Source: Patescibacteria group bacterium
GTDB lineage: Bacteria; Patescibacteriota; Microgenomatia; 2-02-FULL-39-11
Direction: 5' to 3'
Assembly (NCBI GenBank): GCA_023379265.1
Contig: JAMCUI010000010.1
Span: 200-64,199 of the forward strand
DNA length: 64,000 nt
Shown: positions 18,112 to 42,822 of the stretch, piece after piece
Position numbering within the stretch: the first letter of the stretch is position 1
Layout: each line of letters begins with the position of its first letter
Program-made: the position numbers and the translations under genes
The notes under the pieces: generated by a model
What the model was told of the DNA's origin: nothing
Seen by the model: the letters and a program-made list of their open reading frames with translations, nothing else
Database searches by the model: none

Positions 18112-18229
18112 AACTTTGGATGAATTTTTATAGTAAATAGATTTCCGTAGTCAATAAGTTCTTTTTTTACCCCTTTTAAACCAAAATTATAATTGATATA
18201 AAAATACATAGAATTAACGAATTAATAAA

Positions 18230-19015: not shown

Positions 19016-19059
19016 TAATCATTTTTAAATTTCTAAATTCCATTTTAATAGCATAAAAA

Positions 19060-19827: not shown

Positions 19828-20092
19828 AAAAGCAAGATAATCTTGAAATTCGTAATTAATTTCCCGGAAAAATCAACTAAAGATATATTAAAAAAAATTT
19901 TGGCTTGACCTCCTTAAATTATTGAATTTATGCAATAAATTTATTTTTTTAGGTTTAATGGTATAAATATGTTGGTATAAACGATGGTTTATTTCCTTGT
20001 AATCCACTAATACCTCTGTTAAATTCTCATCATATGAAAACATTAGCCAAAAACATGCGATTCTGCCTATCCTGTAGTGGAAAAATGATTAA

Positions 20093-26916: not shown

Positions 26917-26928
26917 TACTCGTGAATA

Positions 26929-27975
26929 ATGAGTCCAAAAATACAACTAACCAAAAACCAGACGTTTTCTCTTGTTTTTCTGGCGGTACTTTTCTTTTCC
27001 TTATTTGTAGGACTTATACTGGTACAACAAAGGCAAGAGATTAGGCCAAAGGCCAGTTCCACATCTGTAGTGCTATCCCTTTTACCGGCCACACAGAATT
27101 TTAATCTAAACGATACCAATACTTTTGACCTGGTTGCGACTTTTACGGGAGGTTCGTCTACGGAAAAAATTGACGGTATTCAAACCGAAGTGGATTTTTC
27201 TTCCCAATATTTAAACATACCGGCAAATCACTATATTATAACAGCTCAATCTGGTCTTTCCGTTCTTAGAGTTGATGGACCTACTATCAGTAATCAAAAT
27301 AATAAAGCCCTCATACGGTTGGTTGCAACAACCCCCGGCAGCGGACCTTCAACAGATAAACCAATCGTTGTCGCGAAGATTGATTTTCAAGGTATTGCGG
27401 CTACCCCAAGACCGCAAATCATATCCCTTGGTACCTCCCAAATAGTAAACAACCTGTCTGTGGCAATACCAGTCACATTGGTAGGCGCAGGATATACGGT
27501 CGGGCAAGGCAATATTACAATAACTCCACCGGGGCCAACCATTCGTCCGGTTATACCAGGTCAGGCTGATTTTCTTTTACAGACAGATTCAAACAGCACC
27601 TCTGTAGGTCAGACTTTTACGGTAAATGTCTCGATGAAACTTACAGATTCAAGCGCAAGAGCATCCGGAGTGGATTTTATACTGCTTTATGATAAGAAAA
27701 TTCTAGATGTGGTAAATACTGTTCCGAATATTACTACAGTTAACTCTCAGGCGCCTTTCACAGATGGCCAAGTTGCATCGGGAGGTTCATTCAACGACCA
27801 ATATAATTTTGTTAGAGTAACTCTATTGTCCAAAAAGCAAACAACAGATCTTCCGTCAGGTACAATCAATCTGGCAAAAGTGACATTTAAGGGCAGCAGT
27901 GTAGGCACCGCTACCATAAAATTCCCTGATGATAATAGTCTGCTACAGGTGTCGGGAATTGCGGTAAGTAATTGA
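26929..27975 (+). CDS. Membrane-anchored protein with two cohesin-like beta-sandwich domains
   Basis: N-terminal TM. Domain 1 contains FDLVATFTGGSSTEKIDGIQTEVDF...ASTPGSGPSTDKPIVVAKIDF. Domain 2 contains VGQTFTVNVSMKLTDSSARASGVDFILLYDKKILDV. It is paralogous to the next three genes. Confidence 0.5.
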   Translation: MSPKIQLTKNQTFSLVFLAVLFFSLFVGLILVQQRQEIRPKASSTSVVLSLLPATQNFNLNDTNTFDLVATFTGGSSTEKIDGIQTEVDFSSQYLNIPANHYIITAQSGLSVLRVDGPTISNQNNKALIRLVATTPGSGPSTDKPIVVAKIDFQGIAATPRPQIISLGTSQIVNNLSVAIPVTLVGAGYTVGQGNITITPPGPTIRPVIPGQADFLLQTDSNSTSVGQTFTVNVSMKLTDSSARASGVDFILLYDKKILDVVNTVPNITTVNSQAPFTDGQVASGGSFNDQYNFVRVTLLSKKQTTDLPSGTINLAKVTFKGSSVGTATIKFPDDNSLLQVSGIAVSN

Positions 27976-28063
27976 GAATTAAAGTTCAAAGTTTGCGGAA
28001 TATAAAATAAATTTAGCGAGGATAAAAAATCCGACAAATAAAAATTATACTGGTTCAGTCAAG

Positions 28064-30010
28064 ATGAGAAATATTTCGGGAGGAAAAGGTAAATCTATAT
28101 TTATACTTTTGCTGCTTCTGGTGGCGCTTTTCGTCGCCGTGGTTTTGGTGCGGCAAAATCAGGAATTAAGGAATAGGGCTGCGGGACTTAGCGTGACTTT
28201 AAGCTTGAATCCGTCTACAGATAATTTGAGTACGAGCAAACCAAAAGAATTTGATATAATCGCTACTTTCCAGAACGGGTCTTCAGGTGAAAAGTTGGAT
28301 GGAATAAGAACAGTCTTAAACTTTCCGGCGGCAAATATCTTCATTCCAGACAGCCCTCTTATAGACACATCGACTTCTGGCCTAAGTCCTTATAAGGTTG
28401 ATAGTCCTGCTGTAGCCAACCAGGCAGGGAAAATGAATATTACATTGATTGCTTCCACTCCGGGTAGCGGTCCGTCTACGGATAAACCTGTTATCATTGC
28501 CAAAGTTTTTCTTCAGGGTAAGGCTCCTATAACTTCAACTTCCGTAACATTTTCAGATACACAAATAGTAAATAACCAATCAGCACAAGTACCTGTCCAA
28601 CTAGAGAGTGCCAATTTGGGAGTGGTAATGGATAACGGAACAAGCTGTCTGACTTATCCGGTGACTGATACCTTCAGCGAATCAAGCTTGAATACGGATT
28701 TGTGGCAAGAATGGAAACAAAACGGCAGTGATTCTCTGACCTCTGGAAGTTTGCGTCTTATGGCAAACGGTGGCGGGTCTTCTGAGTCATATGGAGGTGT
28801 ATTGTCAGCAAAAACTTTGTGTGCAACGACTGGTGATTTTGACACTTCAGTTGACTTCAACCAGTTTACTACAAGCGGTCAATCGGAGGCTGATGCTATT
28901 TTATCTCTTGAGGACCAGACAAACGATTCTCATATATTTATTCAATATGCCAATAAAGGTAACAGTGCTGGTTTTGAAAGTAAACTGGTCATAAAGGGTC
29001 AGGACCAGACTGTGCAGGATAAGTGGACACCCATGTCCGTGACTACTGGAAAACTTCGGATAGTGAGGCAAGGAGGGGTCTTTACTACATATTATGATAC
29101 AGGAAGCGGTTGGATACAGCAGGCTTCATTTATACCCGATTCTTTTGCTACAGCTTTGAATGTGGGATTATTTGCTAAAAGCTGGGGAGAGTATCCTACA
29201 GTCTCCGCCAATTTCGACAACTTTTCTTTTTCCCAAGCCAATCCCGCCCCTTCGTTTACTCCCACTCCGAGCCTGACACCTGTGCCAACCTTGACTCTTA
29301 TACCGACTCCTCCTTTAGGATCCAACCAATACCTTATAAATATAGGAGATAAACAATGGCTTACGATAAATGTGGGTGCTTCGGTGACTCCTCAGATAAG
29401 GTTTAAGGCAAAAGTGGCTTTTCTCCAGAATACACCGGATTTATACTTCAAGCTGAGAGTGAAGGATGAGTTGGCCTTTATGAATAATCCAACTGATCAG
29501 GGAACAACTGATTCATGCAATAATACTCCCGCCGGGGACTACGATTTTTGGGTACCGATGCGGGCGCAAAATGGGATTTATTCTCCAGTACCTTCTATAG
29601 GGACGCCTCCCTCTGGGATGAATATAGCTACAGTTTCGCCTGATGGATGGGTAATCCTTAATAATGTTCAGGCGGGGAAGTATTACTCAATTTTCTTGAA
29701 AGCCCCCAAAACCAGAGGGACACTCATGGTGCAGCATGTACTGCTTGCACCCAACCAGGACCAAAACATACAGGATTTTGACTGGACGACAAATGCATTG
29801 GCACCGGGAGATTTGCCTGACCCCAATAACGGCGGCAAACAGGACTGTACCGTCAATAGTGTGGACCTGTCGCTTATAGAACAGAGGCAAGGAAAGACTG
29901 ACCAGGATAGTCTGAATATAGCCGATGTGAATTATGACGGGGTGGTAAACGGAAATGACATTTCAAAAGTTGTCAATACGCTTTCGACAAAACCTGATGA
30001 CGATAAGTAA
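28064..30010 (+). CDS. Membrane-anchored adaptor protein: cohesin-like domain, ConA/LamG-like lectin domain, PT-linker, beta domain and C-terminal dockerin-like module
   Basis: N-terminus paralogous to 26929 (FDIIATFQNGSSGEKLDGIRTVLNF...ASTPGSGPSTDKPVIIAKV). The middle region is LamG-like. The linker is PAPSFTPTPSLTPVPTLTLIPTPP. The C-terminus is ADVNYDGVVNGNDISKV. Confidence 0.5.
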   Translation: MRNISGGKGKSIFILLLLLVALFVAVVLVRQNQELRNRAAGLSVTLSLNPSTDNLSTSKPKEFDIIATFQNGSSGEKLDGIRTVLNFPAANIFIPDSPLIDTSTSGLSPYKVDSPAVANQAGKMNITLIASTPGSGPSTDKPVIIAKVFLQGKAPITSTSVTFSDTQIVNNQSAQVPVQLESANLGVVMDNGTSCLTYPVTDTFSESSLNTDLWQEWKQNGSDSLTSGSLRLMANGGGSSESYGGVLSAKTLCATTGDFDTSVDFNQFTTSGQSEADAILSLEDQTNDSHIFIQYANKGNSAGFESKLVIKGQDQTVQDKWTPMSVTTGKLRIVRQGGVFTTYYDTGSGWIQQASFIPDSFATALNVGLFAKSWGEYPTVSANFDNFSFSQANPAPSFTPTPSLTPVPTLTLIPTPPLGSNQYLINIGDKQWLTINVGASVTPQIRFKAKVAFLQNTPDLYFKLRVKDELAFMNNPTDQGTTDSCNNTPAGDYDFWVPMRAQNGIYSPVPSIGTPPSGMNIATVSPDGWVILNNVQAGKYYSIFLKAPKTRGTLMVQHVLLAPNQDQNIQDFDWTTNALAPGDLPDPNNGGKQDCTVNSVDLSLIEQRQGKTDQDSLNIADVNYDGVVNGNDISKVVNTLSTKPDDDK

Positions 30011-30070
30011 ATTAATGCAGCGAAAAGTTCTTAGAGTTCGTAAAGTTATTAAAGTTAATTTAGTCTATAT

Positions 30071-30676
30071 ATGAACCAACAGGGATCTTCTGATTACAGG
30101 AAAATTTTAGTGGTTGTCTTGGTGCTTGTGATTCTTTTGGGTGCCATAGTTGTCATAAGGGCCCAGAGGAATGCGGCTTTACAAAAAAGCATGGAAGTCC
30201 AAAAAGTTGCACCAACTATTATCTTATCTCCAACAAGTTTGCCTTTGGTAGGAGAGTATTCCTTCTCGGGAGTACCTGTCAGCGTAAAAGTAGGACAGAC
30301 TTTTAACGTAAGCATCGATTTTAAGGCGCCAAAAACGGTATTGGATGGGGCTGATGCTTATGTAAGATTTAATCCGACCTATTTGAAAGCAGATAGCGTC
30401 ACTGAAGGTCCTTATTTTTCCGAGTATCTGAGGAAAACCATAGATAACGAGGAGGGTATGGTAAAAGTGACTGGTTTTAGGTCAAAAACGGGTGATACTC
30501 TTGATAAAAACGTCACTTTCTTTACCCTCTCCCTGACAGCCCAAAAAAGCGGATTGACAAATCTGACTTTTGATTTCCAGAAGGGAAGGACCAACCTTTC
30601 AACATTGGTAGAAAAGGGAACAAGTAGAAACGTATTGGGTACAACTGGTAAAGCAGTCATTACAATAGCTCAATAA
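30071..30676 (+). CDS. Membrane-anchored single cohesin-like domain protein
   Basis: N-terminal TM, then VKVGQTFNVSIDFKAPKTVLDGADAYVRFNPTYLKADSV...VTFFTLSLTAQKSGLTNLTFDF. 201 aa. Confidence 0.5.
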   Translation: MNQQGSSDYRKILVVVLVLVILLGAIVVIRAQRNAALQKSMEVQKVAPTIILSPTSLPLVGEYSFSGVPVSVKVGQTFNVSIDFKAPKTVLDGADAYVRFNPTYLKADSVTEGPYFSEYLRKTIDNEEGMVKVTGFRSKTGDTLDKNVTFFTLSLTAQKSGLTNLTFDFQKGRTNLSTLVEKGTSRNVLGTTGKAVITIAQ

Positions 30677-30678
30677 TT

Positions 30679-31419
30679 ATGAAGAGGAAGCTTATTTTCA
30701 CTTTTTCGCTGGTAGCGTTCCTTTTTTGTATCAAAGGTGTCAAGGCAGAGGAAGTTCATGCACAGGTTTTTAAGATGCAGCTTGCCAACCCTTCACAAAC
30801 GATCAATGTAGGGGATAATTTTGATATACAGATTATGATAAATACCGCCGGTCAGTCTACCATAAACGGAGACGCGCTTATTACATACGATCCCAATGCG
30901 ATTACTATTGATTCAAGTAATGTCAAGACGGGCAATTTCTATACCTATTTCAGCGCCAATCCTTTAGGTGGATACAATAATAAATTTCTTATCTCCAGTT
31001 GGGAGGAAAGTGTTGCTCACGCAAAATCTACTTCTACAGACGCTCTTTTTGCAACCATGACTGTAGCAGCCAAAAATCCTGGTACAACTACACTGTCTTT
31101 TGACTGTACTACCGGAAATGAAGCTGACTCCAATATCAATTTGGCATCCGATTCATCCGACATCATAAAGTGTCCTCTGCAGCCTTTGACAATAAATATA
31201 GGTGGGGCGGCTCAGCCGACTGCCGCGCCAACCTCAGCCGCTCCAACTTCAGCTCCAACTACTGCGCCAGCAGCAACAAGTACGCCAATTCCCTTGCCAA
31301 CCAAAGCTCCTAGGCCAACTGTGGCAGAGTTAAAAAGAGCAGGAGGAGCAGAAATGACAATTTTAGGATTGGGAGTAGGATTTATACTGACCGTAGTGGG
31401 CGTGGTTTTTGCTTTATAA
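30679..31419 (+). CDS. Cohesin-like domain protein with an Ala/Pro/Thr linker and a C-terminal membrane anchor
   Basis: Signal peptide. INVGDNFDIQIMINTAGQSTINGDALITYDPNAITID is cohesin-like. Followed by AAPTSAAPTSAPTTAPAATSTP and a C-terminal TM (ILGLGVGFILTVVGVVFAL). Confidence 0.5.
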   Translation: MKRKLIFTFSLVAFLFCIKGVKAEEVHAQVFKMQLANPSQTINVGDNFDIQIMINTAGQSTINGDALITYDPNAITIDSSNVKTGNFYTYFSANPLGGYNNKFLISSWEESVAHAKSTSTDALFATMTVAAKNPGTTTLSFDCTTGNEADSNINLASDSSDIIKCPLQPLTINIGGAAQPTAAPTSAAPTSAPTTAPAATSTPIPLPTKAPRPTVAELKRAGGAEMTILGLGVGFILTVVGVVFAL

Positions 31420-31470: not shown

Positions 31471-32181
31471 ATGCATCTGACATCTTTCAAAAAATCGCTC
31501 AAAATTGTAGGAATAATCACGGTTTTGGCTGCAGCTCTTGGCGCAACCATAATAGGCGGAAGTCGCGCAGCACAGCAATTTGCCAAAGCCTCTACATGTC
31601 CGGCACAAAAGATTGCCTCTGCTCAAGTGGGAGCCAATAGCGCAGTTGTCGCCTGGGAGACTACTGATGTCAGTCAGGGAAGAGTGGAATATGGAACTGC
31701 TCCAACTAGCCTAAATTTTACCGCACCGGAGGCAACGAGCGGTAAGATACACAATGTGCCTCTGACGCTTTTGACGCCAAATACTGTCTATTATTATCTA
31801 GTGGCCATAGGGGACAATAAATGTGATTCTTCAGGACAGACTTGTACGGATAATTGTGTGCCTTACAGTTTTACCACCGGTGCTATATCGCCTCAGCCGG
31901 AACTGGTCACAACCACTACTCCCACGCCTCCGGTTTCTCCAACTTTAATACCTCCTGTTGGTACGCCAACCGGTGTAGCTACCCCGTCATCCATGATTTC
32001 ACCATCTAGCAGTGTCAGTCCGACAGGAGGACTTAGCAGTTTTTGCGCTCTGGTACAGGCAAATATCGGCCGCAGCAGTAAAGAGACTTCAGTCTGGAGT
32101 ACATTCAAACAGTACGATATTGATGGAAACGGTATAATAAACGGTTTAGACGTCATCAAATGCCAGCAGAGCGGAAAATAA
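31471..32181 (+). CDS. Membrane-anchored FN3/purple-acid-phosphatase-N-like domain protein with a C-terminal dockerin-like segment
   Basis: N-terminal TM. The FN3-like region is VVAWETTDVSQGRVEYGTAP...NTVYYYLV. PT-linker present. The C-terminus is YDIDGNGIINGLDVIKC. Confidence 0.45.
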   Translation: MHLTSFKKSLKIVGIITVLAAALGATIIGGSRAAQQFAKASTCPAQKIASAQVGANSAVVAWETTDVSQGRVEYGTAPTSLNFTAPEATSGKIHNVPLTLLTPNTVYYYLVAIGDNKCDSSGQTCTDNCVPYSFTTGAISPQPELVTTTTPTPPVSPTLIPPVGTPTGVATPSSMISPSSSVSPTGGLSSFCALVQANIGRSSKETSVWSTFKQYDIDGNGIINGLDVIKCQQSGK

Positions 32182-32187
32182 CCTCGA

Positions 32188-34935
32188 TTAACTTAGGGCT
32201 GCTATATCATTTTGGCTGAATGTTTGGAGTGCTACACGCTTATATAGATCGTCGCTAACCACTTTTCCTCTGGGATTTAGAAGAAGGATAAAAGAATTCC
32301 TGCCGCTTGCCGGTCTTACTTTGATTAACCTTCCCCGAAAATATAGAGGATCCTGGACCATTTTCCAGGCATAATAATCAAGGTCTCCGAACTGTATTTC
32401 CTCCAAAGGGCTAGCTACAAAAATATTACCGTCGATATTGACTTCAACATTAGGAGCTTGACGAATCATTTTTTCTCTTATCGTTTTTCTATCTTGAGAA
32501 GAAAGTCTATGGGTTTCGGATCTTTTGTTCCGACTGACTGCCACCTTTTCATAAAATTTAAGCGAAGCCAGTCGTACGGATGCAGCGCTTCTGCCTCTTT
32601 TAGCTTTTTTTTGGATGCCCGCTACCGGTTTTCTTCTTTCTTTTATATATACCTGATTAAGTCTACTTTCAGAAATTTCCTGCATTCTTTTTTCTATGGC
32701 AAGTATAGCTTTTTCCTGCCATTCCTTGAGACTACGATCAAAAAGAAATCCGCCGATAGCTCCACCTGCAGGTGGTTCTGTCCAGACTATAATGTATCTG
32801 GCAAATTCGTCTTCGATTCCGGGACTGCTTGGATCAAGAGTGAGGAACTTTCGGAGTCTTTGCAAAGGATGTTTATCTCTGTCGGTAGTGAAGATATAAA
32901 CGGGTTTGCCGTCAACTGTAAGATCAAGTTTGATTTTTTTCATTACAGCTTCAGGTTTACTGCCGATTGGAGGATTGTCCACGGGATAAAGATTTAATTT
33001 AGGATTGTTAGTATCCCACTCTGTTATTTCATAATAATAATCTTTACCCTTTATTCCTTCCTCGTCTTCACTGCGCATACTTTCAATAATCTTGTCCAGT
33101 TCATCGGTATGAGTCTTCATCTTCAAAAACCACTCCTTGTTTGAGTCGAAAAGATCCATCATAAGGAGTAGTTTGGCCCGGCTGGTCCAAGGCAATTCTT
33201 GTGATTGTTTGCTAGCAGAGATATTCTTCCTGAAAGGGTTTGGCTCGCCTGATGGTAGAAGGCTGCGGTTGGGATGCATGTTGTGCATGAGAAGTATAAG
33301 GTCAAGGAGTCGGGTGGTTTTTACTTCGTCTGAAAGATTGAATCTGGTAGCTTCGCCGCGACTTCCAGTAAAAAATGACAGCGCCTCTTCCTCGATTTCT
33401 CTCATAAAAGTGTTAATATCAAAAGACAGCCGGCTGAATATATCTTCAGTAATTCCCATAACCAATTGGAAATTCTGTTGAAGACGCTGTCGTATTTCTT
33501 CCAGCTCTAAAGTTTCTTTCCCGTCAAGGCTTTCGGTATTGGCTCTTAATCTGCGCGTGTGTTCAAGCGCCTGGATAAGTTTTATGCCAAAATTTTCTTC
33601 AGTGGGATTAATGTTAAAAGTTCTGAATAATACTTCATAGATTTGTATGAGATGATGATTTAGTCTTCCTGTTTCACCAGTATCGACTCCTTCGGATTTG
33701 ACGTGCCTACTTATAAGTTCCTGCCACTCCTGTGGTCCTAAAATACCCAATGCTGGTATGAAATCTGCAGTCATATAAGGTTCCTGCGGACCGGCCTCAG
33801 CAACTGCAGACACGTCTGAGCGGATTGCCATCCGTTGCATTGATTTTGCCATTTCCCAGTCCAGATAGTATCTTCTTGTAAGTTCGAGATGGTTGTCTGT
33901 ACGTGTTTTACTTAATCTTTGGTGGGCTACATTTGTGTCATAATCCACCATTTTGGCCAACAATTCTTTACTTTTGTCGTGTTCTTGTGGCTCAAAATTC
34001 TTTTGGAAAGTTGCTAGCATTTGCTGGTAGGTAAGTGAATCGTCATCAGGGAATGTATAGCTACGAGAAAGTGGATTGAATTTCCCTATCATGGCAGCTA
34101 CATGTTCTGGATTTTCCAAATCAAGTTTCCGGAGAAATTCAAGCCGTTCTCTTTTCCACCGGCTTGATTTTTTCCTGCCATATTTCGGGTGGTCAGAGTT
34201 TGTCAGAAGATCAATTAATATATCCCGGCGTACCTGAGCCTCATATTTTTCGGCCTGTTTTATAACTGCTAAATTATAGTTATCCATCATCTGCTGGTTG
34301 GCAACAACACCGGCTCTTTGGCGAGCTGCACCTGGTCGCATCGAATCGACAATTGTAATTATTCTTTGAGCTCCTTTTTTATCACTGACGGTTACCGTGC
34401 CTCTTTCTAAAAGGTATCTGACTTGTAAGGGGGATAGAGCCACAGTATCATCTATCTTATCTTGTGGGTTGATTGAAAGAGGTTTAAAAGATGCCGGCAA
34501 CTCGGTAATAGTCAGCGATTCCCTGTGTGTTTGTCTGCCATTACCATGGTTAAAAGAATATTCACGCTGGTTTTGTATAATTCTGATATCATTAGGCGTT
34601 ATAGTATAGTCATGTAATTTCTCGCATACTGATATTGCTGCAGTTTCCAATAAATCATCTCTAGAAAATTCATAGGGTTTCGGCAGGTGTTTTCCCGGGA
34701 GCATCGTCTGTCCTTGCTCTTCGGATGAAATACTTTTTATAACCCAGTAAGATTTTGTCAGCCAAGTCTGGGAAGGATTGGGAGGGTTTGCTTTTTGACT
34801 TAATACATCTGACCAATTGAAGCTAAGTTGGCCTCTAAGTTCATTTGGTGAAATTTGCTGCAATGGCATTACCCGAACCACATTTTCTGCAGGCGGTTCG
34901 TGTTCGGCAGGTAACATTTCTCTAGCTTGAGCCAT
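32188..34935 (-). CDS. Large (915 aa) uncharacterised soluble protein, divergently transcribed from the Rel/SpoT-like gene
   Basis: Long uninterrupted ORF with GC-richer codon usage than the glycan island. A strong SD (AGGGAGG) sits 10 nt before the ATG. No recognised catalytic motifs. Confidence 0.55.
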   Translation of the reverse strand: MAQAREMLPAEHEPPAENVVRVMPLQQISPNELRGQLSFNWSDVLSQKANPPNPSQTWLTKSYWVIKSISSEEQGQTMLPGKHLPKPYEFSRDDLLETAAISVCEKLHDYTITPNDIRIIQNQREYSFNHGNGRQTHRESLTITELPASFKPLSINPQDKIDDTVALSPLQVRYLLERGTVTVSDKKGAQRIITIVDSMRPGAARQRAGVVANQQMMDNYNLAVIKQAEKYEAQVRRDILIDLLTNSDHPKYGRKKSSRWKRERLEFLRKLDLENPEHVAAMIGKFNPLSRSYTFPDDDSLTYQQMLATFQKNFEPQEHDKSKELLAKMVDYDTNVAHQRLSKTRTDNHLELTRRYYLDWEMAKSMQRMAIRSDVSAVAEAGPQEPYMTADFIPALGILGPQEWQELISRHVKSEGVDTGETGRLNHHLIQIYEVLFRTFNINPTEENFGIKLIQALEHTRRLRANTESLDGKETLELEEIRQRLQQNFQLVMGITEDIFSRLSFDINTFMREIEEEALSFFTGSRGEATRFNLSDEVKTTRLLDLILLMHNMHPNRSLLPSGEPNPFRKNISASKQSQELPWTSRAKLLLMMDLFDSNKEWFLKMKTHTDELDKIIESMRSEDEEGIKGKDYYYEITEWDTNNPKLNLYPVDNPPIGSKPEAVMKKIKLDLTVDGKPVYIFTTDRDKHPLQRLRKFLTLDPSSPGIEDEFARYIIVWTEPPAGGAIGGFLFDRSLKEWQEKAILAIEKRMQEISESRLNQVYIKERRKPVAGIQKKAKRGRSAASVRLASLKFYEKVAVSRNKRSETHRLSSQDRKTIREKMIRQAPNVEVNIDGNIFVASPLEEIQFGDLDYYAWKMVQDPLYFRGRLIKVRPASGRNSFILLLNPRGKVVSDDLYKRVALQTFSQNDIAALS

Positions 34936-34939
34936 CTTA

Positions 34940-34972
34940 AAAAAACCTCCCTTTATATTTGGGAGGTCTCTA
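34940..34972 (-). promoter_or_regulatory. Start-proximal hairpin pairing an anti-SD (ACCTCCC) with the SD (GGGAGGT), followed by a U7 run, directly upstream of the 915-aa gene ATG
   Basis: The minus-strand mRNA reads acctccc-aaatataaa-gggaggt-ttttttt-aag-AUG. A 7-bp perfect stem contains the SD. Confidence 0.4.
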
Positions 34973-35210
34973 AATTTTTTAAGCTTATAACAAAGATTTT
35001 ACCACTGACCTCCCATATAGGCAAAGTGCCAATTTCGGACAATAAGGAGGCAGATGGAATGTATTCTACTTAACATACGTTGGTATTTTAAGCCCGAGGC
35101 CTATATAAGTCAAGTCTACAAGATTTGCCTTTTATAGCTATAAAGCCTATAATACCAATCCAATTATTTGGTAGTTATACTTGAGAATTTAATAGCGTCT
35201 TTTTAATTTC

Positions 35211-37526
35211 ATGCCGCAAGAAACACTGCAATCAATTCCGTACACTGAAATAGCAAAATTGGGTGAACTTATAGGAGGGAGGCAAAACACATCAGGTAGA
35301 ATTCCCTTTGGTGAAGTGCCCGATCCGGTGACCCATCTTTTTCCTTCGGAAGAGCAATTGTGCGATCAAATTTCCTTAAAATGTCGGGAGTATATGTCTC
35401 CTGGTGATCTTGGATTGACATATCTGTCTCTTGTTACCGCTTTGGCAGTTCATCAGAATAAATATAGATATACCCATGATCCTTCTTTCCTACACGTAGG
35501 AGGTGTAGCTAAGGATTTAGCCGATGACGAGATGGATTCGATCACGGTTAGTGCTGGAGGGATTCACGATACTTTCGAGGATACGCAATTTGATAAAGAG
35601 CCTTTCAACGAAAATAGCGCCCGGGAAATTTATGCCGCAGCAGGCATACCTAATGAGATCGTTGATGAATTGGTAACAACAGTCGGCAGACTAAGTATAT
35701 TTACAGGAGAGATGAAGAAATCAATGGCTATGGAATTGGGAAGGATGAGCCAGATCGGATCGCTGCTTGATGATCCCCGAGTAATAATAATCAAATTGAA
35801 GGATAGGCTGCGCAATATGCAAAAAAGAGATTTACAGGCACTGCCTGATCCACGCAGGATTGCAAGAAATATCAAAGAAACAGAGGAATTCTACCGACCC
35901 CTGGCAATGATGGTGGGGATGTATAAAGAAGGGGAAGAATTGGATGAACTGTGTTTGCGAAACAGGAGTGAAATCCATGATCAGTTTGCTAATTTATTGG
36001 TATTGACAAAAGAGGTGTTTTTCCAGACTCATGATCCTGAACAGGTGCGTCAGGAATTGGCGGATTTGGGCAGTCTAGATAAAGAAGTGGTACATACAAG
36101 AACTCCGGGACTAAATGATATTTATAGGAGAATGGGAGGAAGAATAGTTGATGACGTGGGAAAATTGAGAATCGCGACTGACAATGATTTTTATCTCAAT
36201 GTCGATATATCTCTAAACGGTATGTCCACAAGCGACCCATTAAGGTGGAGTGAGGCAGCCATGAATTTAGCGACAAAATATACCTTTTTACAAAACGGTG
36301 AGTACGAACTTATAGAACCGATAAACGAAATCAGGTTTAGAAATGATGTGTTAAACGATAGAACAGACGTATTACTTTTTGAATTGAGAAGGAAAAGTGA
36401 CGGACTGAGGGTAGTTGTCCGTATTTATCCTCAGGATAACTTTGAGCTATCAAGAGTTTCTCTCAAGGATATGTATTGGAAGAGGGCGCCTTTACCAAGT
36501 GATGATATTAGTACCGTAGTAAACGGGGGAGACGAAATTGCCAAACGGCATTACTGGGCGTTACAGAGATATAAGCAATTACGGCGGAGATATAAACGTA
36601 TTATGTCTGAATATAACCAAACAAATGTACTTTCGTCTTCCCAGGTCATCAGGTTAATGGAAAAAATACCCGTGGGTAAGATTATTGTGAAAGGCATTGA
36701 TGATAAAGGTGAAGGTTTGTCTTGGGTAATTGATCAGAATGCAACAGTGATGGATTATGTAAGGGATATATTTAGGGGAAGGGGAGGATTGCGCGGAAGT
36801 TGGCCCACCGTTATAGGTGCAACAATAAATGGCAGGCCGGTAGCACTCAATCAGAAGTTACAGCCGGGTGACGAAATCCATATCATCCGGGACAAGAAAA
36901 AAATAGAACATTGGTCACCCCATTGGATACACTATTTTCATACTGACAAGGAGGGTTCACAGATTGTGAGGGATAAAATAAGAAGACTGCTGGAGAAAAC
37001 AACTGGGAAGGAACGGAAGCTTCTCGAAACAGACGTGGCCAGTGCCGGAAAATGGGTGATAGGGCAGGCCATGCATGACAACAGAATACCTTTGCGTATA
37101 GGAATTGATAGGGCAATGCATCTGGTACACCAACATTTTCCGGATATGGACGAAAGAGAATTTCTTTTCAATATAGGGATGGGAGATCCCAGAATAACCA
37201 CTCAGTTGATAAGAGAGGTCGCAACGGAACTGGAAATTCCGAACCAGCAGGCAGGAGTAATGGAAATTGTTTTTGGGAAAGACCAGCGGGGTTTGGTGAG
37301 AGCGGTCTCAAGCACTCTTGATGATCTGCAAATCAGCTTGACTGATGTTGAGTCAGAGATATTAGCTGATAACGTCCCAGTAGTTGTCCGTGTGTATCTT
37401 GATCCAAGTGTACTGGAGGAGTACGGTTATGATAAGTTAAAGCAGATAATAAAAAGCAGCAATAGATGTATAGGCAAAGGATTAATCGATGTCAGACCTC
37501 TAAGAAGGGCATATGAAATGGTCTAA
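35211..37526 (+). CDS. RelA/SpoT-homologue (long RSH) with HD hydrolase domain, a degenerate synthetase-like region, TGS and C-terminal ACT domains
   Basis: HD domain: IHDTFEDT (HDxxED) and IIKLKDRLRNMQ...RPLAMMVGMYKEGEELDELCL. Degenerate synthetase region: HTRTPGLNDIYRRM, LRVVVRIY, AKRHYWALQRYK. TGS: NATVMDYVRDIFRG...ATINGRPVALNQKLQPGDEIHII. ACT: MEIVFGKDQRGLVRAVSSTLDDLQISL. Confidence 0.7.
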   Translation: MPQETLQSIPYTEIAKLGELIGGRQNTSGRIPFGEVPDPVTHLFPSEEQLCDQISLKCREYMSPGDLGLTYLSLVTALAVHQNKYRYTHDPSFLHVGGVAKDLADDEMDSITVSAGGIHDTFEDTQFDKEPFNENSAREIYAAAGIPNEIVDELVTTVGRLSIFTGEMKKSMAMELGRMSQIGSLLDDPRVIIIKLKDRLRNMQKRDLQALPDPRRIARNIKETEEFYRPLAMMVGMYKEGEELDELCLRNRSEIHDQFANLLVLTKEVFFQTHDPEQVRQELADLGSLDKEVVHTRTPGLNDIYRRMGGRIVDDVGKLRIATDNDFYLNVDISLNGMSTSDPLRWSEAAMNLATKYTFLQNGEYELIEPINEIRFRNDVLNDRTDVLLFELRRKSDGLRVVVRIYPQDNFELSRVSLKDMYWKRAPLPSDDISTVVNGGDEIAKRHYWALQRYKQLRRRYKRIMSEYNQTNVLSSSQVIRLMEKIPVGKIIVKGIDDKGEGLSWVIDQNATVMDYVRDIFRGRGGLRGSWPTVIGATINGRPVALNQKLQPGDEIHIIRDKKKIEHWSPHWIHYFHTDKEGSQIVRDKIRRLLEKTTGKERKLLETDVASAGKWVIGQAMHDNRIPLRIGIDRAMHLVHQHFPDMDEREFLFNIGMGDPRITTQLIREVATELEIPNQQAGVMEIVFGKDQRGLVRAVSSTLDDLQISLTDVESEILADNVPVVVRVYLDPSVLEEYGYDKLKQIIKSSNRCIGKGLIDVRPLRRAYEMV

Positions 37527-37671
37527 TAGGTAATCATTTTTTAGTCACAAACCAGTTCTTCCGTTCAAAAAGCGAAAGTTGACGTTGTTCTTGATTTTTT
37601 ACATAAAATGCTTATAATATCAATCTTAAATTAAGATTTGAAGCTGTTTTATAAATTTATTAAAAAATACT

Positions 37672-37998
37672 ATGCGAGAACGAGATCTGGAGTTTTCTCA
37701 AGGATTTAGTGATTTTGGCGATATGCCATTACCGGGAATTCCAACTTATAAACAACCATTCCACTGTTATGGAGTCGTGAGAAGAGGAGGAGGAAATGTG
37801 AAGGCAATTGCCAGTTTTCATGGCAAAAATGAGGTAGCTGCCAGAAAAGCAGCAAACGCTATATCTGGAAATGGCGCTGATGTGGATTGGATTGATCCGG
37901 GTACATCATATGTTAATGATAAGGGTCAGTTGCGTACACATGGAAATGGAGGTTCCGCTCACTATGCGTATAAGGCTGATGGAGCTAAATGTGGTTAA
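37672..37998 (+). CDS. Small Gly-rich hypothetical protein (108 aa)
   Basis: Isolated ORF between two RSH-like genes, with no signal peptide. It carries GGGN / GNGG repeats. Coding status is uncertain. Confidence 0.3.
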   Translation: MRERDLEFSQGFSDFGDMPLPGIPTYKQPFHCYGVVRRGGGNVKAIASFHGKNEVAARKAANAISGNGADVDWIDPGTSYVNDKGQLRTHGNGGSAHYAYKADGAKCG

Positions 37999-38082
37999 TC
38001 AAATGGTTGAAATAGAAATGAATATACTTCTTCAAAATTAAAATACTGTATAATCCGCTTATCCCGCCCTATATCCCCATTT

Positions 38083-40140
38083 TTGGAATTTATTTTCTTT
38101 ATGCCGAAAGCCGAACTTGTTGGTGCATTGGGACTGGACAAATACATAAGAACATCCGGATATGAAACCTTCAGGAAAGAGTCTGTACCGGAGCTTATTA
38201 CGCTTGACAGAATGCACCATAGGAAACCAGCAAGAGCTGGAGTCATATACACTTTTAATCAAGACCAGCTTCCCGGCACGCGACTTTTTCCCCTTGAAGC
38301 AGAAAAAAAGGACGAGTTTTTCCAAAATATCAGTTATTTGAATTCCGAGGAAAGAGAAAAAGTCCAGGTAGCATACAATCTCTGCCTTGCCGGACACCAG
38401 CTGAAATTCCGTTTCACGGGAGAACCTTATACACTTCATCCACTTGAAATGGCGGCAAAAGCAGCCAGTGAGTATCAGGCTGATTGGAAGACACTTGCAT
38501 TGTGTTTCTTGCATGATTTGGCGGAGGATTCGCCGGCCGACGGCACGCCAGTCTTGCCTTTCAAGGTGGAAGAAATTTACACCAATCTCTTTAAGGGGAA
38601 AAATAATGAAAACTTATCTCAGGCAAAAGCCGATGCGCAATTTTTGGCCCGCGGTATGAGGGCAATGAAGAAAATCTCAAGTCCAGATATACCCCACAAC
38701 GTCGATGTGGAAACAGAGATAAAGTTTAGAAAAAGAGAACATGTTGCGGAGGTTTTGACGGCCAAGAAAATGTACGAGACGATGGAGCATGAGGGTATAG
38801 AAAGGGGTGACGTCAGAGTGCTTTTTGTTAAACTCCTTGACAGGTGGCATAATCTCAAAACCATCGGCGGCATGAATGAGGAAGAAAAAGAGAGGAAAAC
38901 CAAAGAGACTTTGGCAGTACACGTACCCCTTGCAGAAGCGCTGAGGCTTTATCGCCTGAGAGATGAACTGGCGGAAATGTCTCTTGCGCAGTTGTATCCC
39001 AAAGAATACAGACTTTTGTCCCAAGCGGAATTAAAGAGTATTGAGGTTGTACAAGTGCTAAATGAGTTCGTAAAAAGCAGTGATTCAGATGTTTTTCTCT
39101 ATTTCAAAGCGCCTTCCGTATACGATTACTATAAACAAGTCGGAACACAAACCCAAAATATCAGTCCGTACGTATCCGTGTCAGTCGTAGGGGATATGGT
39201 AAAAATGGAAAAGATGTGGGGAGACTTGAGTAAAAATATTTTGGATACGCTTGACAGGGTTTCTCCTTTTAAGATGGAGGGTGTACCTCCGGCCAGGGTG
39301 GAGTTGAATGTAAGTCCTACAACTATAGGGGAGTTTATATCCCAAAATGCTTCTCTTTCCGACATAGTCAGTGTAAGGGGTAGGGGGAGCGAAGCAAAAT
39401 CTGCCTGGCAAGCGCAAGCCGTCTCCCACCTCCTGAAAATTCGTGAAGGGTTTATACGGGCAAAGGAGGAGGGGATGTTTTCGATATTTGTCCAGACAGT
39501 TTCAGGAGATAAGACAGGGGCCATAGCTTTACGAAGGAAGGGGTTAAATGTAAGCAGGCGGCATGAAGTGGTATTGTCTACACACGGGAATATGGTTGAT
39601 CTTTTGGGGTCGGGAGGAATAAAAATGTCGAAATTGGCCAGAGTCAAGAAAGTTACAGTGGAGTATATTGATAAATACGGCCAGCGTGAAAGACAAGACA
39701 TACGGTCAAATAAGTTTAATGATCCAATACCGGCAGGTTGTGTAGTAAGAGAAATAGAGTATTTCCCTAAGGGTAGCGCTATCTATTCCGGATCTTTAAG
39801 ATGGAGACCGACATTAACTGAAGTAAACAGACGGTTAAACTCATTTTGGGAAAATCTTTATTCTAAAGATGAACGAGCCCGAAAGGAAATCCAGCATCAC
39901 GGCAGGATGAGATTTTATAACTCGGTATTGCAGGAGGAAAGCAAATTTGGAAGAAATAATATTGATTATTTGCCTTCCGAACTTTTCCATCTAGCCTATT
40001 TATCTTCAAAGAAATTCGGGGGTTTCTATTGGCCCAACGAAGATGCTCTTATGAAAGATTTTGCTTTTGGAAGACGCCAAGTGTTATTCCGGATTATGAT
40101 GAAAAATTATAGCGATATAATAAATAGAAAAAATGTTTAG
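38083..40140 (+). CDS. RSH-type HD (alarmone hydrolase-like) domain protein with a ~450-aa uncharacterised C-terminal extension
   Basis: EPYTLHPLEMAAKAA...LALCFLHDLAEDS (HDxxED) and VKLLDRWHNLKTIGGM...ETLAVHVPLAEALRLYRLRDELAEMSL match the Rel/SpoT hydrolase domain. No synthetase, TGS or ACT motifs were found. Confidence 0.65.
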   Translation: MEFIFFMPKAELVGALGLDKYIRTSGYETFRKESVPELITLDRMHHRKPARAGVIYTFNQDQLPGTRLFPLEAEKKDEFFQNISYLNSEEREKVQVAYNLCLAGHQLKFRFTGEPYTLHPLEMAAKAASEYQADWKTLALCFLHDLAEDSPADGTPVLPFKVEEIYTNLFKGKNNENLSQAKADAQFLARGMRAMKKISSPDIPHNVDVETEIKFRKREHVAEVLTAKKMYETMEHEGIERGDVRVLFVKLLDRWHNLKTIGGMNEEEKERKTKETLAVHVPLAEALRLYRLRDELAEMSLAQLYPKEYRLLSQAELKSIEVVQVLNEFVKSSDSDVFLYFKAPSVYDYYKQVGTQTQNISPYVSVSVVGDMVKMEKMWGDLSKNILDTLDRVSPFKMEGVPPARVELNVSPTTIGEFISQNASLSDIVSVRGRGSEAKSAWQAQAVSHLLKIREGFIRAKEEGMFSIFVQTVSGDKTGAIALRRKGLNVSRRHEVVLSTHGNMVDLLGSGGIKMSKLARVKKVTVEYIDKYGQRERQDIRSNKFNDPIPAGCVVREIEYFPKGSAIYSGSLRWRPTLTEVNRRLNSFWENLYSKDERARKEIQHHGRMRFYNSVLQEESKFGRNNIDYLPSELFHLAYLSSKKFGGFYWPNEDALMKDFAFGRRQVLFRIMMKNYSDIINRKNV

Positions 40141-40161
40141 GAGAACTTTTTGTTTGGTTTA

Positions 40162-42822
40162 TCACGGCAATATTCTAAATCTCAGCTGTTTTTTGGTTTC
40201 GACAACGACAAAAGGAATAAGCGATACCAATCCGACAATCAACCAGTTATAAGAGTTCAAATTGCTTGTCTGAAATACAAGATTTCCCCAATAAGTCTGG
40301 ATGACCAGGATTTGAAGGATAACTGAAACAATTGCTGTTACCACTAGATATTTATTGGTAAAGATTCCCAGTGAAAAAAGAGATTTCCTGGTACTTCTAT
40401 TGTTGAAAGCGTGAACCAGTTGGGAGAGGGCCAGGGCGGCAAAAGTCATGGTTTGGGCAACAGTGTAGGAGAAATGCGAGAGAGAAAAAAGGAATAGGCC
40501 AAAAACGGCAATTCCCATAATGCTACCCTCAACAAGCATATAAATCCAGCGTTTTTTGTACAGAATTCCTCTATCTATATCTCTGGGTGGCTTTTTCATG
40601 ACGTCAAACTCAGGCGGGTCAAGTCCCAAGGCAAGAGCAGGCATGCCGTCTGTGATAAGATTTATCCAAAGTATCTGTATAGGTAAAAGAGGAAGTGGTG
40701 TCCCAAAAAGGACACCTCCTGTTACCACGATGACTTCAGAGAGGTTGCAGGAAATAAGATAGCGGATGAACTTTACCAGATTGGCAAAAATCACTCTTCC
40801 TTCCCTGACAGCATCTACAATTGTCGCGTAATTGTCGTCTGTAATGACCATGTCGGCCACCTCCCGGGTGAGGTCGGTGCCTGTCATGCCCATGGCAATG
40901 CCGATGTGGCTGGCAGAAATGGCAGGAGCATCGTTTACACCGTCGCCAGTGACTGCCACCTGAGTATTTGGAATGCTTTTTATGGCCTCCACAATTTTCA
41001 GCTTGCCCATAGGGGAGATACGGGCAAAGACATGGACGCCTTCCTGTATCGCTTTTGCCAGTTTTTGGCGGCTATAAAATTCTATTTCATCTTCTGTCAG
41101 TACTTTACCGCTTTGGGAAATGATCCCCGCCGCCAGGGCAATTGAGGCGGCGGTATCCCGGTGGTCTCCGGTAATCATGACGGTTGTAATACCGGCTATT
41201 TTGGCCTGATTGAGAGCGTTTCTTATTTCAGGACGAAGAGGATCCTGCATGCCGACTAACCCCAAAAACTCCATTCCTTTCTCATTGAGTTTGTCCTCTT
41301 CAAGAGCTTTTTTTACCTCATAAGCTGTCATCTTTTTTCTTGCGACAGCCAGACTGCGAAGTCCCTTTTTGGCCATAGCAAGAGTTTGCTCAAGAATTTT
41401 CTTTTTGTCCTTCGCGGTGAGTGTTGAGTTTGACATGATGACTTCGGGAGCGCCTTTGGCATAAAGCAGATGGTCTCCGGTGTCGTTTATTTTGACTACA
41501 ACGCTCATCATTTTGCGCTCGGCTGAGAAAGGCACTTCATAAAGCCTGGGTTGGCTGGTTTTTATTTCGTCCACTTTTAGTTTGGCCCTTTGGGCGGCTA
41601 CTAGAAGCGCCGCTTCAGTAGTGTCGCCGATAATTTTATCTAAGCCGGATATAGTCGCGTCATTTGCCAAGACACCGGCGGTCAAGAGTCTTTCCAGAGC
41701 CGATTTTTCCAGGGGGTTAACAATCTTTCCGTTGTAAATAAACTCGCCGTTGGGATTATATCCTTCTCCTGTCAACGTAAAATTTTCACCATCGGAAAGA
41801 GCAATTTGGACAACATTTATTTTATTTTGGGTCAGCGTCCCAGTCTTGTCGGTAGCAATTATACGTACTGCCCCCAGCGTTTCTACTGCTGGCAGTTTTT
41901 TCACTATTGTCTTTTTTTCTGCGAGCCTCTTGACGCCAATGGAAAGCACTATTGTCACGATAGCCGGAAGACCCTCTGGAATGGCAGCTACAGCAAGAGA
42001 TATGGCTACAAGGAGGCTTTCAACAAATGGAAGATTATTTAGATAGTTGAGTATGAAGACCAGTACAGCAATTATTCCGATGACAAAAGTTAGCGTTTTC
42101 CCAACTTTCTGCAATTCAAGCGTCAAAGGGGTTTTCTCATTTTTTACTTCCCCCAAAAACTGGGCGATTTTGCCGATTTCCGTATTTTTACCCGTGGCAA
42201 ATACGACAGCTTTGCCGCGTCCGGCAATGATTTCCGTATCTTTGAAAATGATATTTTTGCGGTCTGCAAGAAGAACTGATTTTCCTTCAATCGGTTTTGC
42301 ATTTTTGCTTGTGGGTTTGGATTCACCGGTCAAAATACTTTCGTCTGTCCGAAGAGAGAAAGACTCGACGATACGGGCGTCGGCAGGCACTTTTGACCCT
42401 TCTTCTAAAATAAGAATGTCTCCGGGAACAAGCTGGGGAAAAAGGATTTTTTCCACATTCCCATCGCGCAAAACCAGTGCATAAATGACATCTTTTTCCT
42501 TCAGAGATTCCAGAGTTTTTTCAGCCTGAATTTCCTGTATGAAGCCGATGGTTGAGTTGAGTATGACGATAGCCAGTATGGCTATAGCATCAACCGTTTC
42601 TCCCAAAAGAAGAGAGATCGCTGTGGCAAAAAGCAGAATAAGAATGAGTATGTCCCGGAATTGGTCAATAAACTTAGATAAGAGCGATGGTTTGGGTTTC
42701 TCCGGGAGCAAGTTTTGTCCGTATTCATTGAGTCTTCTTTCCGCTTCCTTTTTTGTCAGGCCGGACAACGGGTTGGTTCTAAGTTCAGCAAAAACTTCCT
42801 GGACAGTTTTTTGGTACCACAT
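40162..42822 (-). CDS. Cation-transporting P-type ATPase (type IIA/IIB Ca2+-ATPase-like)
   Basis: DKTGTLT phosphorylation motif and TGDGVNDAPA hinge. N-terminus typical of Ca-ATPases and 10 TM helices. 886 aa. Confidence 0.9.
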   Translation of the reverse strand: MWYQKTVQEVFAELRTNPLSGLTKKEAERRLNEYGQNLLPEKPKPSLLSKFIDQFRDILILILLFATAISLLLGETVDAIAILAIVILNSTIGFIQEIQAEKTLESLKEKDVIYALVLRDGNVEKILFPQLVPGDILILEEGSKVPADARIVESFSLRTDESILTGESKPTSKNAKPIEGKSVLLADRKNIIFKDTEIIAGRGKAVVFATGKNTEIGKIAQFLGEVKNEKTPLTLELQKVGKTLTFVIGIIAVLVFILNYLNNLPFVESLLVAISLAVAAIPEGLPAIVTIVLSIGVKRLAEKKTIVKKLPAVETLGAVRIIATDKTGTLTQNKINVVQIALSDGENFTLTGEGYNPNGEFIYNGKIVNPLEKSALERLLTAGVLANDATISGLDKIIGDTTEAALLVAAQRAKLKVDEIKTSQPRLYEVPFSAERKMMSVVVKINDTGDHLLYAKGAPEVIMSNSTLTAKDKKKILEQTLAMAKKGLRSLAVARKKMTAYEVKKALEEDKLNEKGMEFLGLVGMQDPLRPEIRNALNQAKIAGITTVMITGDHRDTAASIALAAGIISQSGKVLTEDEIEFYSRQKLAKAIQEGVHVFARISPMGKLKIVEAIKSIPNTQVAVTGDGVNDAPAISASHIGIAMGMTGTDLTREVADMVITDDNYATIVDAVREGRVIFANLVKFIRYLISCNLSEVIVVTGGVLFGTPLPLLPIQILWINLITDGMPALALGLDPPEFDVMKKPPRDIDRGILYKKRWIYMLVEGSIMGIAVFGLFLFSLSHFSYTVAQTMTFAALALSQLVHAFNNRSTRKSLFSLGIFTNKYLVVTAIVSVILQILVIQTYWGNLVFQTSNLNSYNWLIVGLVSLIPFVVVETKKQLRFRILP

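Follow-up and report, generated by a model that had tools for sequence, protein, structure and literature searches.

Which protein would make the substrate in a locus that encodes two hydrolase-type RelA/SpoT homologues (RSHs) and no recognisable synthetase domain? This question is raised by a stretch of 64,000 nucleotides (the window; assembly GCA_023379265.1, contig JAMCUI010000010.1, positions 200 to 64,199, forward strand) from a tiny-genome groundwater bacterium, a metagenome-assembled genome of the Patescibacteria. These bacteria (candidate phyla radiation) have minimal genomes and an episymbiotic lifestyle. A stringent-response-like system is essentially undescribed in them, and our literature search found nothing on RSH enzymes in Patescibacteria. 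The locus consists of a gene for a 915-amino-acid (915-aa) protein on the minus strand (32188..34935; "hypothetical" in NCBI record MCL4338908.1) and three genes on the plus strand: RSH1 (35211..37526, 771 aa), a Gly-rich open reading frame (ORF) of 108 aa (37672..37998) and RSH2 (38101..40140, 679 aa). The NCBI records MCL4338909.1 and MCL4338911.1, the latter being RSH2, are named "HD domain-containing". An earlier note on this DNA had placed the 915-aa gene divergent from the RSH genes, and this was borne out, with a spacer of 275 bp (34936..35210) to RSH1. All four ORFs were present where that note had put them, except that the start of the second RSH was corrected from the TTG at 38083 to the ATG at 38101, as in MCL4338911.1.

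The best explanation of the locus is a chromosomal, vertically inherited, alarmone-type module. By computation only, we give an even chance to a split arrangement, in which the synthetase would reside on the big protein and its RSH partners would be hydrolases only. A further proposal, which we put forward tentatively as somewhat less probable, is that the big proteins (750-915 aa) represent an unrecognised, extremely divergent RelA/SpoT synthetase branch that, within one clade of Patescibacteria, took over synthesis from a long RSH turned hydrolase-only; its product would be an alarmone, a new 3'-pyrophosphorylated messenger or a tRNA mark, and such a "split Rel" would be a new regulatory logic among symbiotic bacteria of ultra-small size.

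The RSH proteins of the locus

RSH1 matched Pfam HD_4 above the gathering score (E 5e-10), and its top PDB sequence match was a Rel/SpoT N-terminal domain (6yxa, E 1e-19). NCBIfam spoT_relA matched both RSH1 and RSH2 over the HD region only. In an alignment with 15 canonical long RSHs, residues H95, H119-D120, E123-D124, D198 (in KLKDRLRN) and N202 of RSH1 fell on invariant columns, and both proteins had the ED pair and all four metal ligands. The RSH-type HD domains that the earlier note had proposed for both genes were thereby confirmed.

The hhalign match of RSH1 to long RSHs (probability 99%, columns 50-597) ran from HD through SYNTH to TGS. The intact HD hydrolase domain (aa 51-262, 35361-35996, plus strand) is followed by a pseudo-synthetase (aa 263-500, 35997-36710), placed by its hhalign position, in which GRxK was replaced by TRTP and E.QIRT by VVVRIYP, while the YQSLHT G-loop was lost. 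Pfam PF04607 (RelA_SpoT) matched neither RSH1 nor RSH2. The TGS domain (aa 501-565, 36711-36905) gave a Pfam match below the cut-off (E 0.003), lies within the hhalign match and was aligned with the B. subtilis Rel TGS at 13 bits; the helical region behind it ends in an ACT-like part (36906-37523) with a weak NCBIfam ACT match (E 2.9e-4). Both the Cys cluster and the whole zinc-finger block were absent from the sequence and the alignment. From these comparisons RSH1 was shown to be a long RSH with a complete HD site, the predicted Mn-dependent 3'-pyrophosphohydrolase, with its synthetase motifs lost and its zinc finger gone, and on these two points it falls outside the canonical long RSHs. The description of RSH1 as full-length with degenerate synthetase motifs therefore holds: the GRxK Lys, the G-loop and the catalytic Glu were all replaced, and careful alignment did not reveal the intact canonical synthetase that would have made it an ordinary Rel. 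As a candidate, a canonical synthetase in RSH1 or RSH2 was ruled out by Pfam, NCBIfam, the SYNTH hidden Markov model (HMM) with filters off and residue-level alignment.

RSH2 also matched HD_4 above the gathering score (E 7.8e-11), and a PDB profile search placed two stretches of it on the N-terminal domain of T. thermophilus Rel (7ohg, E 8e-22). The HD domain of RSH2 (aa 76-305, 38326-39015, plus strand) is intact, with the motifs ...LHP, LHDLAEDS and LLDRWHN, and is split by an insertion of ~55 aa. The hhalign match to long RSHs (probability 99.6%, columns 79-385) reached the start of SYNTH, and the ~370 aa after HD consist of decayed SYNTH-like and then TGS-like sequence that could be aligned to long RSHs, without an ACT domain. 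Thus, of the earlier description of RSH2 as a hydrolase domain fused to unknown sequence, the HD domain stood and the unrelated tail did not, and the idea of a new partner domain in the C-terminal part of this protein (685 aa in that note) was not borne out, the sequence being decayed RSH. Nor is RSH2, judged from its sequence, a small alarmone hydrolase (SAH): at 679 aa it differs from the stand-alone single HD of ~180-250 aa of SAH and Mesh1 proteins. Its only relative was an 80%-identical protein of a sister genome, so it is not the common conserved family that the earlier note had considered. Since a pre-HD motif (P.T.LFP.E) and the change of the former GRxK Lys to Pro are derived features common to RSH1, RSH2 and an RSH1 orthologue in another lineage (L010, see below), RSH2 is best read as a further-decayed, lineage-specific paralogue of RSH1. 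As a general partner of the big protein RSH2 was ruled out, being present only in the window and the sister.

Comparison with the sister (80-86% protein identity) indicated purifying selection on every gene and domain, the ratio of nonsynonymous to synonymous substitution rates (dN/dS) lying between 0.06 and 0.2 in the overall range. It was 0.063 for the HD and 0.073 for the pseudo-SYNTH part of RSH1, 0.13 for RSH2 as a whole and 0.03 in its HD, and 0.09 for the 915-aa protein, comparable to the 0.10 of the neighbouring P-type ATPase.

The 915-aa protein and its candidate synthetase domain

No match to the 915-aa protein was found in Pfam, NCBIfam, PADLOC or PHROGs. A word-indexed search for close relatives returned only an identical cluster and the sister protein (86%), while an exhaustive HMMER scan of 1.84e9 representatives gave 13 matches to the family, one of them spurious: a fungal repeat protein of 4,449 aa (P0037), in which a short stretch was matched 25 times, was rejected as a member. 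The other members have 746-912 aa, those with names belong to Candidatus Gottesmanbacteria, and one is annotated "NUDIX hydrolase" in NCBI. Scans of JGI metagenomes found no further relatives, and a scan of GTDB found only the Gottesmanbacteria contig already known. The family is a rare one from Patescibacteria/Gottesmanbacteria, of ~750-915 aa. In the 13-sequence alignment the members were 17-38% identical between clusters, and the invariant columns were few (T60, G81, E232, Q384, K688, K696, D709, K793, E846 and Y898).

An AlphaFold2 (AF2) model built with this alignment reached a pLDDT (predicted local distance difference test) of 83 and a pTM (predicted template modelling score) of 0.82. 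When the full model was searched against PDB with Foldseek, all of the top 50 matches were Nudix hydrolases (best E 1.8e-5), and the N-terminal domain (~aa 15-215, 34291..34893, minus strand) was shown in this model to have a Nudix fold. Pfam NUDIX matched four of the 13 members, the window protein not among them. Its Nudix box (GX5EX7REUXEEXGU) is reduced to ...AAISVCEKLHD, with ISVCEK in place of REUXEE and a single Glu left. An intact RE.xEE box was present in the family alignment only in P0039, P0041, P0044 and P0045, and a partial one in P0046. Because the box is degenerate in the window protein, its N-terminal domain is probably non-catalytic; and since most of the family has lost the box, the candidate for a conserved catalytic part is the C-terminal domain. 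Between the two lies a helical middle region by AF2 secondary structure (~aa 216-624, 33064..34290, minus strand), which holds the invariant E232 and Q384 (GPQ motif).

The invariants of the family are concentrated in the C-terminal 290 aa, a nucleotidyltransferase (NTase)-like domain (aa 625-915, 32191..33063, minus strand) that is a candidate divergent RelA/SpoT-type pyrophosphokinase. Its consensus, RDK...S..RK.LERG.....I.D.FG..I.ID ... GS.AS...W.WLK.V ... EE.Q.FP ... DD..Y...RL., is collinear with the RelA/SpoT motifs RxKxxxSxxxK, the Mg-binding Asp (DxxGxR), the G-loop, ExQxRT and H..YK. In this weak-signal comparison K688 (32872-32874), R695-K696, D709 (32809-32811) and E846(-x-Q848) (E846 at 32398-32400) were invariant or nearly so and kept the order of the motifs; K793 was invariant as well. 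When the family was compared with long RSHs by hhalign, the block that best matched SYNTH (aa 684-722, 32770-32886, minus strand) was placed on GRxK..DxxGxR with E 3.7e-3 for the whole protein and 1.3e-3 for the C-terminal domain, and the domain against a SYNTH-only alignment gave P 1.9e-4 in the same register. A second block, EE.Q paired with E.QIRT, was collinear at P 0.05. The 915-aa protein and its sister alone gave a non-significant E of 0.14, the signal needing the 13-member profile.

The HMM of the C-terminal domain found, among all PDB sequences, a Rel synthetase (9s6k) as its top match in this register (E 0.011). In all 28 long RSHs its best domain fell on this SYNTH block, with up to 10.9 bits, and 12 of the 28 scored above all of 280 shuffles, which reached at most 5.4 bits at random positions; reversed sequences were negative. 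An NTase-like fold is likely for the C-terminal domain, and an RSH-type synthetase homologue is its best assignment, drawn from weak signals and unproven.

Association with RSH genes and competing explanations

Gene neighbourhoods were compared in 11 lineages carrying the big gene, in the flanks available for each. An HD-type RSH was encoded directly beside the big gene in 7/11 lineages and in three orientations, and none of the partner RSHs had SYNTH motifs or a zinc finger in the alignment. In the window and the sister the big gene and RSH1 are divergent neighbours. In the L011/L012 lineage (big protein P0040, 18% identical) a single HD_4 protein of 756 aa is encoded divergently from the big gene, RSH2 and the small ORF are lacking, and the synteny is that of the window, with L28, M50 and ATPase on one side and Pur_ac_phosph_N and cohesin on the other. 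A divergent HD_4 neighbour of 747 aa was found in L016 (P0042) and a divergent RSH fragment at the contig end in L014 (P0045; E 8e-14), both together with a PaaX-like neighbour. The arrangement in L010 (P0041) is convergent with different neighbours (M28 peptidase, arginyl-tRNA synthetase), and the 652-aa neighbour is an orthologue of RSH1 (31% identity over 592 aa, E 1e-70), the pseudo-SYNTH and TGS parts included. In L007 (P0038) the genes are in tandem, the ORF 7 bp upstream on the same strand being the TGS/ACT-bearing end of an RSH. The subfamilies of big proteins and partner RSHs were partly congruent (P0040/P0042 with L011/L016).

This adjacency is the strongest independent evidence linking the big gene and the RSH. 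Since RSH2 and the small ORF are limited to the window lineage, the core unit is the big gene with one HD-only RSH, not a trio. The co-occurrence of the three genes that the earlier note had asked about accordingly holds for the big gene and RSH1, which do recur together in relatives, and does not extend to RSH2 and the small ORF, seen in the window lineage and the sister only.

Two side observations concern the partner RSHs. A Glu takes the place of the fourth metal ligand (the KLxDRLHN Asp) in three of four subfamilies (KLEERLQN, RCAERLHN, RIAERLDN; genes at L011 5505-7775, L016 822-3065 and L010 4415-6373), and in two of these three another residue stands where AH.GQ.R has its first His; by their sequence such HD sites are unusual and possibly still functional. 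In the sister genome (GCA_964520615.1, contig CAZFNL010000081.1) the RSH1 orthologue is directly preceded by an rve-family transposase gene (L003 238-1317), and the orthologue of the 915-aa protein is at another contig end (L005); in a Logan contig from this lineage (L004) the two genes are direct neighbours. Either an insertion sequence has entered, in one population, the divergent promoter region that the two genes share, or this is a break in the assembly.

In the mechanism that we propose, the synthetase function has moved to, or was always in, the C-terminal domain of the big protein with its Nudix fold. This domain would be a divergent pyrophosphokinase in which K688 and K696 bind the phosphates of ATP and D709 and E846 bind Mg2+, and it would make a 3'-pyrophosphorylated product, which may be (p)ppGpp, (p)ppApp or a product of another acceptor. 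The N-terminal domain would act as a nucleotide-binding or regulatory module, catalytically dead in the window protein, and in relatives with an intact Nudix box it might trim the product. The long RSH would have turned hydrolase-only, as in A. baumannii SpoT, so that RSH1, and in the window lineage also RSH2, added there as a second hydrolase paralogue, would hydrolyse the product of the big protein. The TGS/ACT parts and the structurally constrained pseudo-SYNTH part would control the timing of hydrolysis, and the putative back-to-back promoters shared by the big gene and RSH1 would allow their coordinated expression.

The 915-aa protein as the missing synthetase is favoured over the other option of the earlier note, hydrolases acting on another nucleotide, because of its catalytic-type invariants, its weak best matches to SYNTH and the RSH adjacency in 7/11 lineages; this preference is a weak-signal one. 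Several results weigh against it. Foldseek of the C-terminal model against PDB returned noise only; Pfam RelA_SpoT matched none of the 13 family members even at E 10; and in the reverse search the long-RSH SYNTH HMM did not score family members above shuffles. Of the motif blocks, only the first gave a significant alignment. The Arg that should follow the Mg-binding Asp stands one position out of register, and neither the purine-stacking Tyr nor the His of the G-loop (xGYxSxH) is conserved, the loop of the family being GSxAS...W.WLK. In the neighbourhoods, no RSH was found in the available flanks of 4/11 lineages (L006, L008/L017, L015 and L013, the last a short contig). In L006, the closest non-sister (P0036, 38% identical), the synteny is kept except for the RSH block, so that the ATPase abuts the big gene, and in L008/L017 and L015 no RSH lies within 6-8 kb of it. 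The six-frame search with the long-RSH SYNTH HMM, filters off, found no SYNTH-domain gene elsewhere in the window, and since it covered 64 kb of the genome, a conventional Rel or small alarmone synthetase (SAS) may lie in another part. As a side observation, large ORFs of 849, 737, 439 and 331 aa flank the big gene in L015 (10658-13207, 14621-16834) and L008 (3397-6268); they had no Pfam match and no match to the RSH or big-family HMMs, and could be other, unrecognised partners.

If the genes are linked and the chemistry is a different one, the 915-aa protein would be another NTase-fold enzyme or a non-catalytic nucleotide sensor. Nucleotidyl transfer, synthesis of oligonucleotides or cyclic nucleotides, and modification of tRNA or other RNA would come into question, and the HD proteins would process that product, or (p)ppApp, or a scavenged host nucleotide, e.g. 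NADPH as by Mesh1; we rate this explanation as unlikely. A lack of any functional link, with RSH1 as a SpoT-like housekeeping hydrolase, RSH2 as a decaying duplicate, an ordinary Rel or SAS elsewhere and the big protein as a syntenic neighbour, is less probable still. A syntenic block (L28 - M50 peptidase - P-type ATPase - ... - Pur_ac_phosph_N - cohesin) is common to the window, L006 and L011, so part of the adjacency could be inherited gene order; the RSH-free flanks of L006, L008/L017 and L015 agree with this, and a hydrolase-only long RSH alongside a separate synthetase is known from A. baumannii SpoT (PMC9974481). However, the adjacency persists where neighbours or orientation have changed (convergent in L010, tandem in L007, PaaX-like neighbour in L016 and L014), and the big proteins at those loci are only 17-22% identical to the window protein, a divergence over which inertia would not be expected to preserve gene order.

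A toxin-antitoxin or defence-like pair, in which the big protein would be a toxic pyrophosphokinase like toxSAS (synthesising ppApp or pyrophosphorylating the CCA end of tRNA) and the HD proteins its hydrolase antitoxins, is very unlikely. PADLOC found no defence-system match at the locus and PHROGs gave generic phosphohydrolase matches only, on which grounds a defence-system or phage origin was rejected. The proteins are three to four times the size of toxSAS and SAH proteins, and the partner still has TGS and ACT regulatory domains, as housekeeping long RSHs typically do. The pair is divergent or convergent in most lineages, whereas toxSAS modules are compact bicistronic operons in a mobile or variable context; in the window the region is housekeeping, syntenic and chromosomal, it is no variable island, and no mobile genes flank the locus. 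The toxSAS or phage-defence idea of the earlier note is therefore unsupported. That RSH1 could still be a bifunctional Rel with an unorthodox synthetase active site is hardly credible: its SYNTH-equivalent region is of full length and under purifying selection (dN/dS 0.07), and RSH1 and the sister have an Asp and an Arg at the places of the D..G.R motif, but other residues stand in for the GRxK Lys, the YxSxH G-loop and the catalytic ExQxRT Glu, the D..R stretch is deleted in the L010 orthologue, and neither PF04607 nor the filter-off SYNTH HMM gave a match. The preferred reading remains a synthetase on the big protein with hydrolase-only RSH partners.

Surroundings of the locus and relation to known systems

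The 275-bp spacer between the 915-aa gene and RSH1 holds two back-to-back promoter-like sites (35113-35085, minus strand, and 35125-35153, plus strand), i.e. two of the three 10-of-12 consensus matches within 32000-40400, where the total number of such sites is not above chance, so that the pair gives positional support only. The small Gly-rich ORF between the RSH genes, which the earlier note had pointed out, is real, with a 67%-identical counterpart of 111 aa in the sister genome and a dN/dS of 0.20. It has its own promoter-like site (37591-37618) and no match in Pfam, NCBIfam, PADLOC or PHROGs. In strain L001, whose flanks are 99.5% identical, it is replaced by an unrelated 172-aa signal-peptide gene, and it is not present in L011, L010 or L016. 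As an essential third component it was ruled out, and it probably lies outside the core of the module. The exchange concerns an insert of ~956 bp (L001 12325-13280) against a 507-bp segment with the 108-aa ORF (window 37535-38041). By eye the insert is richer in G+C, and its 172-aa product has a signal peptide and a C-terminal membrane helix; common to both strains are the 46 bp directly 3' of the stop codon of RSH1 and, before RSH2, the TGTATAAT -10 element. The RSH1-RSH2 spacer looks like a hot spot of cassette exchange.

A gene for a protein of 220-255 aa with a purple-acid-phosphatase N-terminal, fibronectin type III-like domain (Pur_ac_phosph_N) is convergent against the 3' end of the big gene (window 31471-32181, plus strand), with a gap of a few bp at most or an overlap, in the window, L005, L006, L007, L011 and L012. 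This covers the window, the sister and three more distant lineages, the short contig L007 included, and usually cohesin-domain genes come next. This neighbour may be an additional component associated with the module, or simply a matter of synteny. The cluster of cohesin- and dockerin-domain proteins behind it (26200-31419), with a weak DUF1583 match, is kept in L005, L011 and L012 and suggests a cellulosome-like surface scaffold in a Patescibacterium. At 18001-20000, within a glycosyltransferase/O-antigen-ligase region, the G+C content dips to 0.27 against ~0.40 elsewhere, and surface-polysaccharide genes may have been acquired there horizontally. Otherwise the window holds ordinary chromosomal genes (MreB/MreC/PBP2, formyltransferase, envelope glycosyltransferases, the cohesin/dockerin cluster, P-type ATPase, M50 peptidase and two tRNAs). 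At gathering thresholds Rfam found no riboswitch or other RNA in the locus, only the two distant tRNAs.

The published RSH census was obtained by HMM detection (PMC7229694; PMC3153485) and comprises 30 SAS, 11 SAH and 13 long-RSH subfamilies, built as HMMs (PMC7229694); it would not have captured a protein as divergent as those of the 915-aa family. If the proposed reading is true, a branch of synthetases has escaped the census because it diverges too far for present models to detect. The locus would then be a natural case in which the two activities of Rel sit on separate polypeptides and the dead synthetase domain is kept under selection. This separation would bear on the evolution of cross-regulation between HD and SYNTH (compare hydrolase-only SpoT, PMC9974481), and a physical link would join a Nudix fold to chemistry of the alarmone type. 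Should the reading prove wrong, a conserved pairing of a hydrolase-only RSH with an uncharacterised NTase-like protein remains documented by the locus and gives a lead for function.

Four known systems can be set beside the locus. The small alarmone synthetases RelQ/SAS1, RelP/SAS2 and toxSAS (PDB 5dec, 6fgk, 6ewz, 7ztb; PMC7229694) are the closest to the C-terminal domain of the 915-aa protein. Unlike them, it is unrecognised by PF04607, has large insertions, is without the G-loop Tyr and His, sits behind a Nudix fold and ~400 aa of helices, and has a predicted synthetase role; its sequence resembles the SAS/toxSAS domains and fails their family model, and it would at best be a new, far-outlying branch. 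With the (p)ppGpp-degrading Nudix hydrolases Thermus Ndx8 (cited in PMC3153485) and NahA (PMC7584652) the N-terminal domain shares the fold detected by Foldseek, and four family members pass Pfam NUDIX, whereas in the window protein the REUXEE box is down to a single Glu and the domain is the first quarter of a larger protein. As in the toxSAS-SAH toxin-antitoxin modules such as FaRel/ATfaRel (PMC7229694), the gene for a candidate synthetase-type protein has a hydrolase-only member of the RSH family as its neighbour. The module departs from these in size and in the arrangement of its genes, and likewise in its housekeeping synteny, its lack of defence signatures and the TGS/ACT domains of the hydrolase partner.

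Plant RSH1 is a similar case of a hydrolase-only long RSH. A. baumannii SpoT (PDB 7qpr/7qps; PMC9974481) is another, and resembles RSH1 of the locus in its long-RSH architecture, an HD domain that looks active, a dead and retained SYNTH domain and C-terminal domains of the TGS and ACT type; 7qpr was among the PDB sequence matches of RSH1 (E 1.1e-15). Unlike this SpoT, RSH1 and its relatives have no zinc finger, and they are only ~20% identical to any canonical long RSH. RSH1 is furthermore paired not with a RelA paralogue but with a Nudix/NTase-like protein of 750-915 aa, and RSH2 is present as a second copy.

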